Positions 53,955 through 60,119 of a stretch of DNA of 64,000 nucleotides are shown here, in pieces. A model generated the notes under the pieces. It had not been told where the DNA came from and searched no databases. It saw only the letters and a program-made list of their open reading frames with translations. Made by a program: the position numbers and the translations under genes. The first letter of the stretch is position 1, and every line of letters begins with the position of its first letter. Source of the DNA: an uncultured Coriobacteriia bacterium (lineage in GTDB: Bacteria > Actinomycetota > Coriobacteriia > Anaerosomatales > PHET01); NCBI GenBank assembly GCA_942493275.1, contig OW818687.1, positions 1,857,918 through 1,921,917 of the forward strand, in the 5' to 3' direction.

Positions 53955-54626
53955 GTGCGGCTGCTGGAGGGGCTCGCCGAGCTGGTCGCGCCCACGCGGT
54001 GCGCGGGCTGCGAGCTGCCCGGTTCACTGCTGTGCCCCGGCTGCCTCGACGCGGTGCCCTACCTGCGGCCGGGTGACGCCTGTGCGCGGTGCGCGGCTCC
54101 CTTCGGGGCGCTCGTGTGCACCGAGTGCTGGAACCGGGAGTTCGCCTTCTCCGAGGCGATCGCCGTGGGCCCGTTCGAAGGGCCGCTCGCGCGGGCGGTG
54201 GCTCTCCACAAGGATGCTGGCGAACGGCGCCTGGGCGGGCTTCTCGGAGGGATGTTGGCGCGGCAGGTGCGGCCGTGGAATGGATGGCCGGATGCGGTCA
54301 CGTGGATTCCGCCGACGCGCGCCGCGATGCGGCGCCGTGGGTTCGATCACGCGTTCGCGTTCGCGCAGCCGGTCGCCGAGGCGCTCGGCGTGGAGGCGAT
54401 ACCGCTGCTCACCCGTGGTGCGGCCCGCGATCAGCGCGCGCTCGGGAGAGGGGAGCGGGCGCGAAACGTGCGTGGTTCTGTGAGCGCTGACGGGCAGGCG
54501 CCGTCGCGCGTTGTGCTGGTAGACGACGTGATGACCACGGGCGCTACGCTCGACGAGGCGGCGAATCAGCTGTTGTCTGCTGGCGCGTTTGAAGTCCGCG
54601 TGGCGGTGGTCGCACGAACCTGGTGA
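53955..54626 (+). CDS. comFC: ComF family protein (ComFC-type phosphoribosyltransferase-fold)
   Basis: N-terminal double CxxC zinc finger (CAGC...CPGC, CARC...CTEC) and a PRTase loop VVLVDDVMTTGATL. Confidence 0.88.
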   Translation: MRLLEGLAELVAPTRCAGCELPGSLLCPGCLDAVPYLRPGDACARCAAPFGALVCTECWNREFAFSEAIAVGPFEGPLARAVALHKDAGERRLGGLLGGMLARQVRPWNGWPDAVTWIPPTRAAMRRRGFDHAFAFAQPVAEALGVEAIPLLTRGAARDQRALGRGERARNVRGSVSADGQAPSRVVLVDDVMTTGATLDEAANQLLSAGAFEVRVAVVARTW

Positions 54627-54647
54627 GGTCCGCGGCGGCACGCGCTC

Positions 54648-54656
54648 TGCTAGAAT
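54648..54656 (+). promoter_or_regulatory. Extended -10 promoter candidate TGCTAGAAT
   Basis: TGn + TAGAAT, 22 nt after the comFC stop, at the 5' edge of a 312-nt non-coding gap. Confidence 0.5.
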
Positions 54657-54658
54657 CA

Positions 54659-54935
54659 GCGTCGCTTCCGTCCGGGTCTGTGGTTGCGGGTGCGCAAGCA
54701 CCTCAGTCCAAGGTAGACGCGGCCGAAAGGACCCACGTAAGCCGGCGGTTCGCCGTCGCGCGAGCATGGCGCGTCTTAGGGGTAAGTCGTACCGTCCGAT
54801 AGGATCCGCATCCCGCGGTCCCGGGCGAGAGGGCCGGTAGTGAGATCACATCAAGCGGAAGCTCCAGTATGCGAGTGTGGGGCCAAAGACCAGGTCAGCC
54901 GGGCGGAAGCACCCTGCGGTTTCTCGGGAGGACGC
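54659..54935 (+). promoter_or_regulatory. Candidate structured 5' leader / unclassified cis-regulatory RNA upstream of the first amino-acid binding protein gene
   Basis: No credible CDS in 54627..54938. A long-range helix pairs 54659-54670 (GCGUC-G-CUUCCG) with 54925-54935 (CGGGAG-GACGC) and covers the SD GGGAGGA. A local GNRA hairpin GGUGC-GCAA-GCACC lies at 54689-54702. Confidence 0.4.
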
Positions 54936-54938
54936 CAG

Positions 54939-55787
54939 ATGGCACGCATCATCAGAATCGCCCTAGCCATCGCCCTGTGTGTAGGGGCGCTTTCGGTCAC
55001 CGCGTGCGGCGCTGAGGCGCCCCGCGTGCGCAAACCCAAGATCGCTCCGCCCGCCATCAAGTCCGAGGGCATTCTCGTGGCGGGAGTCGACATGGAGACG
55101 CCGCCGTTTGCCGGCAAGGACGCCGACAAGCTCGCGGGCATCGACGTCGATGTCGCTGCCGCGCTCGCTGATTCCTTGGGCCTGACAGTGGAGTACGTCG
55201 ACGTGAAGCCGAGCGAGGCTGCAACGGCGCTCGCGGAGGGCACCGTGGACGTAGTCTTCTCGATACCGTTCTCCAGCGCCGATCTCGCGAAGATCTCGCC
55301 TGCGGGCACCTATCTCACCGATGGTCCGGCTCTGTTCATCGCGGTCGAAGGAACCGGTTCTGTCGAGCCGACTATGAGCCTCGACGGGCCCATGCCGGAG
55401 AAGGTCGGCGTGCAGACGGAGTCGCAGGCGTTCTGGCTGCTGCGCTCCGAGTTCGGGGAGGAGATCTTGGAGCCCTACGACCAGCTGAGGGACGCTATCG
55501 ACGCCGTTGCCGAGGGCAAGGTTCCAGCGGTCGCAGGTGACGCCCTCGTCGGCGCCTACATCGCGAGGGACTACCCCGGAGTGGTCTACGCCGGCCAGCT
55601 CGGTCCCGCCGAGCCGCTGGCTGTAGCGGTCGCTCCCGAGAACGTCGCGCTCTCCGACGCGGTGCGCGAGTCACTCGACTCGATGGTCGCGGGCGGCGTC
55701 ATCGACGCAATCCGGCGCAAGTGGGTCGGGGACTTCCCAATGCTCGACGTTCCGGAGTCAGACGAAGAGACGGCAGCGGCCGAGTAG
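54939..55787 (+). CDS. ABC transporter substrate-binding lipoprotein, family 3 (polar amino acids)
   Basis: Start MARIIRIALAIALCVGALSVTAC (lipobox). SBP_bac_3-type blocks L.VG.D...PPF......K..G.DVD.A.A.A..LG. Confidence 0.85.
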   Translation: MARIIRIALAIALCVGALSVTACGAEAPRVRKPKIAPPAIKSEGILVAGVDMETPPFAGKDADKLAGIDVDVAAALADSLGLTVEYVDVKPSEAATALAEGTVDVVFSIPFSSADLAKISPAGTYLTDGPALFIAVEGTGSVEPTMSLDGPMPEKVGVQTESQAFWLLRSEFGEEILEPYDQLRDAIDAVAEGKVPAVAGDALVGAYIARDYPGVVYAGQLGPAEPLAVAVAPENVALSDAVRESLDSMVAGGVIDAIRRKWVGDFPMLDVPESDEETAAAE

Positions 55788-55816
55788 CTCGGTTCACCGC
55801 GACTCGCACTCCCAAC

Positions 55817-55868
55817 TGTATGCACCGGCGCCCGCGATTCGCATGAATCACGGGCGCTATTGCATACA
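55817..55868 (+). terminator. Long imperfect hairpin (about 21 bp paired) after the first binding-protein gene; U-tract-less terminator candidate
   Basis: TGTATGCA...GCGCCCGCGATTC-GCAT-GAATCACGGGCGC...TGCATACA, 30 nt after the stop at 55787. No T-tract follows. Confidence 0.45.
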
Positions 55869-56006
55869 AGTGGTCACGCTCTGTATACGCCGCGGAATCC
55901 TTCCTGAGTTGCACTTTCGGTGTATGATTATGCATCGTGTTAGGTATGTGACGGGCCGCATCCGACCGGAAGGTTGTTGCGGCGCAACATTGTTAAGGAG
56001 GGGACG

Positions 56007-56849
56007 ATGCTGAAGGCTCGCAAGCTTATTTCTCTGCTGCTCGCACTCGCGCTCGTGTTCGCCATGGGTGCGCTCGCGGGTTGCGGTGGCGCCGAGGAGC
56101 CCGCTGAGGAGCCGGCTGCCGAGGAGCCGGCTGCCGCCGAGTTCACCACGATCACCGAGGGCAAGATCATTGTCGGTTCCGATACGGCCTATCCGCCGTT
56201 CGAGAACGTCGTCAACGGTGTGACCGAGGGCTTCGACGTCGACATGGTTACGGCCATCGGCGAGAAGCTCGGCTACGAGGTCGAGTTCAAGACCTACAAG
56301 TTCGACGCGCTCATCGCCGGCATGCAGGCCGGTACCGAGTTCGACATGATCGCCTCGGCGATGACGATCACGGACGAGCGTAAGGAAGCCATCGACTTCT
56401 CCGATCCTTACATCAACTCGAACCAGTCGCTGGCCGTTGCCGCCGACTCCGCGATCGCCACGGTCGACGACCTCAAGTCGGGCGACAAGGTCGGCGTGCA
56501 GTCGGGTACCACCGGTGAGAAGTGGGCCCAGGACAACCTGGCTCCCAAGGGCGTCGTCGTGACCCCGTACGATGACATCCTCACCGCTTTCAACGCTCTT
56601 TCGTCGGGCGACATCGTGGGCGTCATCAACGACGCGCCGATCTCGCAGGATGTCGTCAAGGACCCGGCCCGTAAGGCCAAGGTCGTTTCCGAGATCCCGA
56701 CCGGCGAGCAGTACGGCTTCGCGTTCAACAAGGACAACGCCGCGCTTCGCGACGCTGTCAACGGCGCTCTGGCCGAGCTCAAGGCCGACGGCACCTACGT
56801 CGAGATCTACACCAAGTGGTTCGGCGCTGAGCCGCTGTCCATTCCCTAA
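56007..56849 (+). CDS. ABC transporter substrate-binding lipoprotein, family 3 (polar amino acids), second copy
   Basis: AAGGAGGGG lies before the ATG at 56007. Lipobox LAGC. Contains VGSDTAYPPFE, GFDVD and DMI.SAMTIT.ER. Confidence 0.9.
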   Translation: MLKARKLISLLLALALVFAMGALAGCGGAEEPAEEPAAEEPAAAEFTTITEGKIIVGSDTAYPPFENVVNGVTEGFDVDMVTAIGEKLGYEVEFKTYKFDALIAGMQAGTEFDMIASAMTITDERKEAIDFSDPYINSNQSLAVAADSAIATVDDLKSGDKVGVQSGTTGEKWAQDNLAPKGVVVTPYDDILTAFNALSSGDIVGVINDAPISQDVVKDPARKAKVVSEIPTGEQYGFAFNKDNAALRDAVNGALAELKADGTYVEIYTKWFGAEPLSIP

Positions 56850-56930
56850 GGGGTAAGGACGCTCCTGTTTTGCTAGAGTGAGGCCGGCGACTACGGTCGC
56901 CGGCCTCTTCTTCGCCCAGAATGGTCGTCA

Positions 56931-57827
56931 TTGCGAGGGGTACACGGCGTGGACGCTCTCATCGACTCTTTCCAGACAATCAAGGAACTCTTCTTCAACG
57001 CTGAGAAGATGGCCGATGCGTTTCCGGTGATTCTCGCGGCCTTCCCGGTCTCGGTCTTCATCGGGGTCGGCGCGTTCTTCCTTGCCATTCCCGGCGGCCT
57101 GTTGCTCGCGTTCATGAAGATGGCGAAGTCCCGGCTGGTTCGATGGCCGGCGACCTTCTACGTCGACGTCGTTCGCGGAACTCCGCTCTTCCTGCAGATT
57201 CTCATCGTCTACTTTGGCCTGACACTACTGCCGTTCTACCAGACGCTGATCAAAGAAGTGCCGTGGGTGAAGGAGCCGTTCCTGTTCGGGATCGACTTCA
57301 CCGTGTACATGCGCGCGTTCTTCGTGCTTTCGTTCAACTCGGCGGCCTACATGGCCGAGATCTTCCGCGCCGGTATCCAGTCGATCCCGAAGGGGCAGAT
57401 GGAAGCTGCGCGTTCGCTGGGCATGTCGACGCCGGCGGCGATGGCGTACGTCATCATCCCTCAGACGGTGCGGCGCATCCTGCCGACGCTCATGTCGGAG
57501 TTCATTCTGCTGTTCAAGGACACGGCGCTCCTGGCCGCGGTCGGCGTCGCCGAGATGACGCTTCGCTCGCGCGAGTTCGTTGCCAGTACGTTCAACCAGT
57601 CGGCATACATGGTCGCCGCCGGCTTCTACCTCCTGTTGACTATCCCGCTCGGCCGTTTGGTCGGGCGTCTCGAAGACAAGCTCGCAGAGTCTGAGGGTGG
57701 GGGCGGCGGCAAGCGTCCGCCCACGATCGACGCCACGGCGATCGACTCCGAGCACGTGATCGCGCACAGCGAGTCGATCCTTCACACCGCGTCGCGACCG
57801 AACCCGCATACGGGAGGCCACCGATGA
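56931..57827 (+). CDS. Amino-acid ABC transporter permease (His/Glu/Gln/Arg/opine family)
   Basis: Contains [10 protein letters not shown] and the EAA loop [10 protein letters not shown]...A...VI.PQ. The start is uncertain (TTG 56931 or GTG 56949). The C-terminal ~50 aa are non-conserved and Gly-rich. Confidence 0.88.
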
Positions 57828-58564
57828 GCAGCGTTCAGCCCATCGTCCGGATCAAGGGCCTCATGAAGGCCTTCGGTGAGCTCGAAGTCCTCAAAGGCGT
57901 CGATCTCGAAGTCAACAAGGGCGAGGTTGTTGTCATCCTCGGTCCCTCGGGTTCGGGCAAGTCGACACTGCTGCGCTGTGTCAACCGCCTCGAGGACTCA
58001 ACCGGCGGGGAGATCTGGTTCGAGGACACGGAAGTCACGTCGAAGAAGACCGACATCAACAAGGTGCGAGAGCGCATCGGTATGGTCTTCCAGTCCTTCA
58101 ACCTGTTCCCGCACCTCACCGCCAAGGGCAACGTCATGCTCGCGCAGCGCAAGGTCCTCAAGCGCAACAAGGCCGAGGCCGAGAAGATCGCGGCCGAGCA
58201 GCTCGAGCGAGTGGGCCTCTCGGACAAGATCGACTACTTCCCGGCACAGCTGTCCGGCGGGCAGCAGCAGCGCGTCGCCATCGCTCGCGCGCTTGCGATG
58301 AACCCGCACGTGATGCTCTTCGACGAGGCTACCTCGGCTCTTGACCCGGAGCTGGTGCGCGGAGTGCTCGACGTCATGAAGTCGCTGGCCAAGGCCGGTA
58401 TGACGATGATGGTCGTGACGCACGAGATGGGTTTCGCTCGCGACGTCGCGGACAGAGTGGTGTTCATGGACGATGGCGTCATTGTGGAGCAGGGGACCCC
58501 GCAAGAGGTCTTCGACAATCCCCAGAATGAGCGCACGAAGGATTTCCTGGGCCACATCTCCTGA
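57824..58564 (+). CDS. Amino-acid ABC transporter ATP-binding protein (GlnQ-like)
   Basis: Walker [10 protein letters not shown], signature [15 protein letters not shown], Walker [16 protein letters not shown] overlap with the permease gene. Confidence 0.96.
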
Positions 58565-58696: not shown

Positions 58697-59257
58697 ATGC
58701 AAATCAGGGTCACTGGACGTCACATGGACGTCACCGATGCGATCCGCGTGTACGCCGAGGAGAAGATCTCCAAGGCCAGCAAGATTCACGACCGCGATGA
58801 GATGCAAGTCGAGGTCACACTGCACGTAGAGAAGAACCCCGCAGTCAAGAACAAGGACGTCGCCGAGGTAACGGCGCGCATGAAGGGCATCGTCGTCCGC
58901 GCCGAGGAGTCGGCACCGGACATGTACGCGGCCATCGATCTGGTTTCCGAGAAGCTCGAGCGCCAGATGCGCAAGTTCAAGGCGAAGCTGCTCGACCGCC
59001 GCAGCGGCAAGGTGGTCGTGAAGACCGCGCCCGGCGACCAGGAGCTGGCGGTCGTGCTCCCCGAGGACGAGATGTCGGGCTCGATCGTGAGGACCAAGAC
59101 GGTCGAGACCAAGCCGATGACCGAGGACGAGGCGATTCTCCAGATGGAGTTGCTCGGCCACGATTTCTTCGTGTTCCGGCACGCCGAGACCGCCGACATC
59201 AATGTGCTGTACAGGCGCAACGACGGCGACCTGGGGCTCATCCAGCCGGAGGGATAG
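58697..59257 (+). CDS. hpf: Ribosome hibernation promoting factor, long form (S30AE / sigma-54 modulation protein family)
   Basis: Contains MQIRVTGRHMDVTDAIR.YAEEK and the long-HPF C-terminal dimerisation part K.MT.DEA..QMELLGHDFFVF. Confidence 0.93.
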   Translation: MQIRVTGRHMDVTDAIRVYAEEKISKASKIHDRDEMQVEVTLHVEKNPAVKNKDVAEVTARMKGIVVRAEESAPDMYAAIDLVSEKLERQMRKFKAKLLDRRSGKVVVKTAPGDQELAVVLPEDEMSGSIVRTKTVETKPMTEDEAILQMELLGHDFFVFRHAETADINVLYRRNDGDLGLIQPEG

Positions 59258-59367: not shown

Positions 59368-59450
59368 TCGTGTAAGTCCTTTCAGGCGAGGGCCCGTTCG
59401 TCGCACCAGTCGCAGCTTAGTCGCAGAAGCATTTGCATCAGGGGGCACCA

Positions 59451-60119
59451 ATGGAACAGGACGTTACTCGTGTCCGCGTCGAGGACATCGAGGCCACGTT
59501 GGGCGAGGTCGGGGAGATCAAAGCCGCCCGAGTCGTGGTCGACGCCGATGAGCGAATCCAAGAGATTCACGTTCTTGCGCTGCCCACCAAGCCGCCGAAG
59601 CAGTTAGTTCGCGACATCGAGTCCGCTTTGATGGCGCGCTTCGGAATCCCGATCGATCACCGCAAGATATCCATTGCCCAGCTCGGCCGTGACGTCGACG
59701 AGATTGCTGTCTCGGCGACCGCAACGCCCGTGGTGCGCCCCCGAATCGTCGCGATCAACGCATCTGTGTCTGGAGTGCAAGCGGCAGCGTCAGTGACGCT
59801 CGAGATCGGGGGTTCTGAGTACATCGGCACGGCATCCGGTCCGGCCAGTCAGTCAGGGCGCTCTCGGCAGGTCGCGCTTGCGACCCTTGATGCGGCCGCG
59901 CAGTACCTGGGTGGTGCGGAGACCTTCGCGCTCGAAGATGTGACGATCGCTCAGCTCGGCCGAGAGCGTGTGGCCGTGTCGTGCGTGACGCTCGTCTCGG
60001 CGTTTGGGGAGCAGGCGTTTACCGGCTCCGCACTCGTCAGGCAGACCGAAAACGACTCCATCGTGAGGGCGACCCTCGACGCGATCAACCGTCGAATCGG
60101 CCTCCTGAAAACAGAATAG
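59451..60119 (+). CDS. Hypothetical cytoplasmic protein (222 aa), family not recognised
   Basis: The ORF-track start is the TTG at 59433; the ATG at 59451 follows GGGGG. No TM helix or signal peptide. The C-terminal half has two units of the type G.A.G......R..ALATLDA... (a dsRBD/ACT-like pattern; weak). Confidence 0.55.
   Translation: MEQDVTRVRVEDIEATLGEVGEIKAARVVVDADERIQEIHVLALPTKPPKQLVRDIESALMARFGIPIDHRKISIAQLGRDVDEIAVSATATPVVRPRIVAINASVSGVQAAASVTLEIGGSEYIGTASGPASQSGRSRQVALATLDAAAQYLGGAETFALEDVTIAQLGRERVAVSCVTLVSAFGEQAFTGSALVRQTENDSIVRATLDAINRRIGLLKTE

Follow-up and report, generated by a model that had tools for sequence, protein, structure and literature searches.

The gap at 54627-54938 of the window (the whole 64-kb stretch of Coriobacteriia DNA under analysis) is a full-length raiA motif RNA (ModT) of about 247 nt, positioned directly upstream of SBP1, a gene for a divergent family-3 solute-binding lipoprotein. 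The arrangement is best explained, and here our confidence is high, by a gap that encodes the raiA RNA, by probable read-through of transcription into SBP1, and by translation of SBP1 that is not gated through the helix over its SD that the original prediction had put forward. The raiA RNA and its usual neighbourhood are already known, and a further copy of it belongs to routine Rfam annotation. What may be new is a modest observation, namely that the start codon of the divergent SBP1 follows helix P1 of the RNA at a distance of 24-40 nt; the class-wide, near-fixed coupling between raiA and SBP1 is a lead, not a result. The features of the locus are collected in Table 1.

Table 1. Features of the raiA-SBP1 locus, in positions of the window
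Feature	Position	Strand	Basis or remark
ComF-family phosphoribosyltransferase-like gene (putative)	53955..54626	+	Pfam Pribosyltran 31.7 bits
Extended -10 of the raiA RNA gene, TGCTAGAAT	54648..54656	+	read directly; conservation
raiA motif RNA (ModT)	54664..54910	+	Rfam match 54667-54907 plus 3-bp P1a extension
P1a	54664..54675 with 54899-54910	+	cmscan alignment and pair map
GU bulge	54676-54677	+	conserved; between P1a and P1b
P1b	54678-54680 with 54896-54898	+	cmscan alignment and pair map
P1c	54681-54685 with 54888-54892	+	cmscan alignment and pair map
Optional P2 hairpin	54688..54703	+	GNRA loop GCAA 54694-54697; 16 nt inserted relative to the Rfam model, at P2
GGU bulge	54893-54895	+	conserved; between P1b and P1c
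Linker from RNA to gene	54911..54938	+	SD GGAGGA 54927-54932
SBP1, divergent family-3 solute-binding lipoprotein, 282 aa	54939..55787	+	Pfam SBP_bac_3 65 bits
Long GC-rich hairpin after SBP1	55817..55868	+	surrounding 186 nt (55788-55973) at -74.1 kcal/mol, z = -3.3
Amino-acid ABC transporter cassette (SBP2, permease, ATPase)	55974..58564	+	SBP_bac_3 143.6 bits, BPD_transp_1, ABC_tran (Pfam)
Long-form ribosome hibernation factor HPF/RaiA	58697..59257	+	Pfam Ribosomal_S30AE and S30AE_C

Identity and structure of the gap RNA

A cmscan search with Rfam 15 matches the gap to the raiA motif RNA (RF03072) at 155.6 bits, against a gathering score of 101.3 (E = 7e-39), and the match runs over model positions 1-209 of 209, that is, over the full length of the model. 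It is the sole Rfam match above gathering score in the entire window, and a sensitive Rfam search of 54400-55100 lists raiA alone at E <= 1, with no 6S, Ms1 or riboswitch alternative. The original prediction had described an unclassified leader RNA and had suggested this very search; the confident full-length match to a known family, an outcome it had itself named as counting against it, overturns that description. Its view of the gap as structured noncoding RNA rather than coding region is borne out by the raiA match together with the covariation given below, and the gap indeed holds no credible ORF, as an extension from GTG 54840 would cross the conserved RNA.

The same prediction had offered, as its second option, an independent sRNA with pairing ends of the 6S or Ms1 kind. 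The independent RNA with paired ends comes close to the truth, and paired ends, an own promoter and a length of about 250 nt would all suit a 6S- or Ms1-like RNA that binds RNA polymerase. Such an identity is nevertheless extremely unlikely: raiA stands alone at E <= 1 in the sensitive Rfam search, and the fold contains several junctions instead of forming a rod with a central bubble.

The comparison across genomes starts from SBP1, whose homologs number more than 260, with identities of about 50-60%. Twenty-eight of these were aligned, and the alignment served to retrieve 80 loci from species-representative genomes, which are almost entirely MAGs of uncultured Coriobacteriia/Actinomycetota but include an Adlercreutzia, Eggerthellaceae and Atopobiaceae. 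With the window RNA as nhmmer query, an RNA homolog lies directly upstream of the SBP1 homolog and on the same strand in 76 of the 80 loci, while the remaining 4 begin too near a contig end. All 13 related loci that were checked with Rfam give full-length raiA matches of 121-163 bits. The covariation analysis uses a MAFFT alignment of 71 loci (A2), which extends from 12 nt before P1 through the start codon. Several genes are split into frame-shifted pieces in three of the loci (L036, L048 and L063), probably through long-read assembly errors.

Analysis of this alignment reveals that the Rfam structure with three added pairs is paired in 89.9% of cells, with 26 pairs changed on both sides; none of 500 shuffles reaches this level, and slid controls stay at 36-42%. 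The closing helix P1 joins both ends of the RNA, is split by the GU and GGU bulges, and is 99.2% paired over the 71 loci with changes on both sides in 11 of its 15 pairs. The three added pairs extend P1a beyond the Rfam match by GCU 54664-54666 with AGC 54908-54910, and all three covary (columns 10-12 with 293-295), for example from UA to CG in 6 loci. The two bulges and the architecture of P1 have been described for raiA by cryo-EM (PMC12968392). One variable hairpin falls behind, its distal part being just 53.7% paired, and misalignment by MAFFT is probably responsible. The folding energy of the full 289-nt region has a z-score of -0.2, but the whole-region minimum free energy is uninformative here because the sequence is 66% GC.

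Inside P1, the clean GNRA hairpin that had been pointed out at 54689-54702 (GGUGC-GCAA-GCACC) is present and represents the optional P2 of raiA, an element found in 42% of raiA RNAs (PMC12968392). Inspection by eye across the 71 loci indicates that its stem sequence and loops vary and that the hairpin itself is kept. The cmscan alignment also spans the region of the remaining consensus stems, and the PK1 and PK2 regions, which form the core pseudoknots of raiA, are nearly invariant in the 71-sequence alignment.

The 3' border of the RNA carries a further sequence feature. Most loci, judged by eye, share AGC(A/G)C directly after the Rfam end of P1 (54908-54912 in the window); its AGC extends P1, and the AC or GC that follows may represent a 3' overhang or mark a processing site. 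The linker sequence AGCACC resembles the 3' strand of P2, and an alternative pairing based on this resemblance was considered and rejected, as no co-variation with P2 is visible by eye.

Promoter, linker and the downstream gene

The extended -10 element that had been read upstream of the RNA is strongly confirmed by its conservation. In 71/71 loci the extended P1 has a TAnnnT hexamer upstream of it, 5-9 nt away from its first base (6-7 nt in 66 of them), and TG precedes the hexamer in 70/71; TAGAAT is the hexamer in 43 loci and TACACT in 16. A strict sigma-70 scan finds no promoter, because no -35 match is present, and the raiA promoter is recognised only through conservation. From the conserved spacing of the -10 element, transcription probably starts at G54664 or right beside it, which would leave the 5' end of the RNA flush with P1. 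With this start, positions 54659-54663 would be discriminator DNA rather than RNA. The original assignment of 54659-54670 as the first transcribed bases would then need correction, since its first five positions fall into the stretch that separates the conserved -10 from this probable start.

At the opposite end, the RNA is separated from SBP1 by a short linker of near-constant length. Specifically, the distance from the Rfam end of P1 to the SBP1 start codon is 24-40 nt in 64 of the 71 loci and 26-35 nt in 56 of them, with a mode of 31 nt. The exceptions measure 45-81 nt; among the loci with long linkers, L006, L031 and L056 carry extra GC hairpins in the linker (by eye), and the outliers L048 and L063 are accounted for by their frameshifted MAG contigs. 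The raiA RNA and SBP1 share a strand in all 71 analysed loci, and the junction between them is never interrupted among the related loci. The physical placement that had been described for the RNA, directly in front of the binding-protein gene, is therefore correct.

Insertions of about 0.7-2.5 kb are found elsewhere in the cluster: between the ATPase gene and the HPF gene in L021, L039, L041 and L072, between SBP1 and SBP2 in L066, and between ComF and raiA in L023, L033, L057 and L072.

No promoter-like TAnnnT element occurs in the window linker or in the invariant 3' part of the RNA, and neither the scan nor direct reading finds a terminator-like site in these same segments. The hexamer is likewise absent from the four longer linkers that were inspected by eye (L006, L031, L056 and L078). 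With neither promoter nor terminator in a linker of about 31 nt, read-through into SBP1 is probable, and the raiA RNA and SBP1 are likely co-transcribed. RNA polymerase departing from the raiA promoter would then read on into SBP1 and stop at the hairpin behind it; the raiA promoter would drive SBP1, and the mature raiA RNA would be the stable 5' part of a raiA-SBP1 transcript or arise from it by processing.

SBP1 itself is a divergent member of its family. It scores lower against SBP_bac_3 than its paralog SBP2 (Table 1), with which it shares 25% identity, and every NCBIfam match of SBP1 is far below cut-off. Its Cys23 is invariant in the 28-protein alignment, which is consistent with a lipoprotein.

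An in-frame GTG at 54840 adds 33 codons to the SBP1 ORF, all of them upstream of the ATG and running across the 3' part of raiA, and could mislead gene callers. As a start codon this GTG was rejected: it overlaps the conserved RNA, the offsets of upstream starts differ between loci, and it is with the ATG that the signal peptide of the lipoprotein begins. ATG 54939 is also the start of the database protein P0001 (282 aa, 100% identical).

The hairpin that had been noted downstream of SBP1 is present, within a region whose fold has z = -3.3 (Table 1), and it is probably the terminator of the raiA-SBP1 unit, although its U-tract is weak in the window. Homologous loci (L002-L011) carry hairpins at the same place in which the stem sequence differs and the stem is kept; a U-tract comes after the hairpin in several relatives, as UUUU in L003 and L008. 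The hairpin is flanked by GUAUnGCAUA ... UUGCAUAC, and over the 220 nt behind SBP1 the motif TGCATAY/RTATGCA reaches 2.53 per kb, compared with 0.067 per kb in the rest of the loci (32/70 loci). Another sequence, GTGTATGATTATGCAT, at about 55920-55936 in the window, recurs in L002. Hairpin and motif together could be a terminator combined with an operator for the transporter operon.

Pairing over the SD of SBP1

The original prediction regarded the gap as a ligand- or protein-responsive translational leader of the riboswitch type, in which GCGUCGCUUCCG (54659-54670) pairs with CGGGAGGACGC (54925-54935) around one bulge, with a further CCG (54672-54674) opposite CGG (54917-54919), so that the SD of SBP1 is hidden in response to a ligand or protein signal. 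The complementarity exists, with a duplex energy of -18.5 kcal/mol in the window; no terminator stands between the RNA and SBP1, and Rfam types the raiA family as "Cis-reg; riboswitch". Against these points, the pairing does not exceed chance. Among shuffled arms, 3.5-7% reach -18.5 kcal/mol, and 11% of the 3' arms of other loci pair equally well with the 5' arm of the window.

The comparative data contradict the riboswitch-like leader more directly. A covariation check, which the prediction had itself suggested, gives the SD helix no support over the 71 loci: 50.8% of its positions are paired, against 51.6% in shuffles (425 of 500 reach the observed value) and 49-57% in slid controls, and the pairing is not kept in relatives. 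An alignment-free comparison leads to the same outcome, as the duplex between the 5' arm and the SD region averages -11.93 kcal/mol within a locus and -11.85 kcal/mol across loci (Wilcoxon p = 0.97). This background of about -12 kcal/mol arises because the pyrimidine-rich 5' strand of P1 (CUUCC) faces a purine-rich SD.

Moreover, the proposed helix competes with P1. Within the whole region, the best partner of the proposed 5' arm is the 3' strand of raiA P1 (-23.0 kcal/mol), and the extended P1a, which the helix overlaps, is both stronger (-23.4 kcal/mol) and 99% conserved. With transcription starting at G54664, the proposed 5' arm would be partly untranscribed and partly locked in P1; counted from that base, the alternative duplex with the SD region amounts to just -12.1 kcal/mol, which is the background level. 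A local hairpin in the linker that might hide the SD was considered separately and rejected, as SD accessibility is 0.45 in the linkers and 0.46 in shuffled linkers (p = 0.59).

Evidence from other raiA RNAs points the same way: no small-molecule binding was found in vitro (PMC5737381), and the phenotypes of raiA deletions are rescued in trans (PMC10861870, PMC11706538). A cis-acting leader that conceals the SD of SBP1 through this helix is thus very improbable. The complementarity stands as an observation, and its role as a device that buries the SD does not, given the absence of covariation, an energy within the range of chance and the competition from P1. Judged from sequence comparison, the helix appears to be a chance match, and the RNA would not gate SBP1 translation by means of it.

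Neighbourhood, function and relation to known systems

The genes around the RNA match the setting known for the family. A ComF-family gene lies upstream, and a binding-protein gene and hpf lie downstream on the same strand. The ComF assignment is putative and draws on synteny and on sub-threshold family matches (NCBIfam ComF TIGR00201 at 57.4 bits and GntX at 64.8 bits, both below cut-off), whereas the HPF/RaiA gene, which gave the raiA RNA its name, reaches 87.8 bits against a cut-off of 40.9 for NCBIfam TIGR00741 (yfiA). Among genomes with a raiA RNA, comFC is found upstream in 74% and raiA downstream in 66% (PMC10861870), and a 2017 study had already noted that periplasmic-binding-protein genes lie downstream of raiA RNAs (PMC5737381). 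Most of the related loci keep the order IF-2B family, membrane transporter, ComF, raiA RNA, SBP1, SBP2, permease, ATPase and HPF. In the window, a 228-aa ORF at 59433-60119 directly follows hpf and has no Pfam or NCBIfam match.

Loci in which this order is reduced retain the raiA-SBP1 pair. In three loci from Atopobiaceae, L076 (1040-2939), L078 and L080, the order is ComF, raiA RNA, SBP1 and HPF, with hpf directly after SBP1, and tblastn (E <= 1e-8) detects no permease or ATPase genes. The SBP1 of Atopobiaceae may accordingly be an orphan binding protein that is linked to the RNA and hpf instead of a transporter. The pair also persists in L074, L075, L077 and L079, where ComF is inverted, distant or undetected. 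One of these loci, L075 (473-643) from Eggerthellaceae, has two tRNA genes about 4 kb upstream of the raiA RNA and lacks the usual upstream genes.

The known biology of raiA favours action in trans. The RNAs are abundant, very stable and trans-acting (PMC10861870, PMC11706538, PMC12968392), and their deletion in Clostridia delays entry into stationary phase and impairs sporulation (PMC10861870, PMC11706538). They bind KhpA and KhpB, and their biochemical activity is not yet known (PMC10861870, PMC11706538, PMC12968392); in C. difficile, raiA has been renamed ModT (2024 ModT study, PMC11706538). A trans-acting function has been shown in Clostridia only, not in Actinomycetota, and nothing on raiA in Eggerthella was found in the literature. 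The raiA RNA of the window would most likely act in trans as well, and would probably also form the 5' part of the SBP1 transcript.

The near-fixed spacing of 24-40 nt to SBP1 would also fit a role in cis. Under such a reading, raiA would have a second function in Coriobacteriia as the obligate 5' leader of SBP1, without the proposed helix, and would work through coupling to the raiA promoter, through stabilisation of the mRNA, or through control by processing or by a protein bound at P1 and the following AGCAC. The near-constant linker and the shared strand in every analysed locus are in line with this, as are the persistence of SBP1 beside the RNA where transporter genes are undetected nearby or ComF is displaced, the AGC(A/G)C after P1 in most loci, and the association with binding-protein genes in two phyla (PMC5737381). 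Compact genomes and inherited synteny could, however, explain the adjacency by themselves, and the SD takes part in no conserved structure. Other lineages have the RNA hundreds of nt away from the next gene, or oriented against it (PMC10861870), and the constant leader position is seen within Coriobacteriia but not across the raiA family (PMC10861870, PMC5737381). We consider a second, cis-linked role unlikely.

The trans-acting raiA RNA with probable read-through into SBP1 remains the preferred reading, and the wider idea, in which the Coriobacteriia raiA RNA is an obligate, co-transcribed 5' leader in functional partnership with, or acting in cis on, a possibly "orphan" SBP1, has a low though appreciable probability. 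If true, it would contradict the present picture of raiA RNAs as purely trans-acting, and it would point to a specific protein partner worth pursuing for raiA, which is among the most widespread RNAs of bacteria whose function is not known. Should raiA and SBP1 be co-expressed or interact, cultured Coriobacteriia (Adlercreutzia, Eggerthellaceae) would offer a useful raiA test system.

Compared with the raiA/ModT RNAs described so far (Weinberg 2017, Soares 2024, PMC11706538), the window RNA agrees in its full model match, in P1a, P1b and P1c with the GU and GGU bulges, and in the flanking ComF-family, hpf/raiA and immediately downstream binding-protein genes. It differs in that the Coriobacteriia start codon follows P1 after about 31 nt with no evident terminator, whereas published accounts emphasise distances of hundreds of nt and an orientation that varies, and in that hpf is displaced by about 3.8 kb through SBP1 and the ABC transporter cassette. 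The RNA Ns-raiA of Nocardioides sp. Iso805N, solved by cryo-EM (PMC12968392), also comes from Actinomycetota and has 253 nt, compared with about 247 nt here. According to the cmscan alignment, the window RNA carries P2, and a large variable-hairpin insertion and a stem-loop occupy the place of P7-P8 in that subtype; the host class here is Coriobacteriia, and the likeness is drawn from the published description and the cmscan alignment.

SD-sequestering riboswitches share with the window RNA the leader position of a structured RNA directly upstream of an SD. The difference lies in their defining feature, a conserved alternative helix that occludes the SD: here neither conserved SD pairing nor a known ligand accompanies the RNA, and the raiA family acts in trans where tested.

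In the ssrS-ygfA unit of E. coli, 6S RNA is co-transcribed with the downstream protein gene and then processed. That RNA belongs to another family and has another function, and co-transcription at the present locus is one that we infer. By analogy, the raiA-SBP1 unit may nonetheless follow the same plan, in which an abundant structured RNA has its own promoter and a close downstream gene with no intervening terminator.
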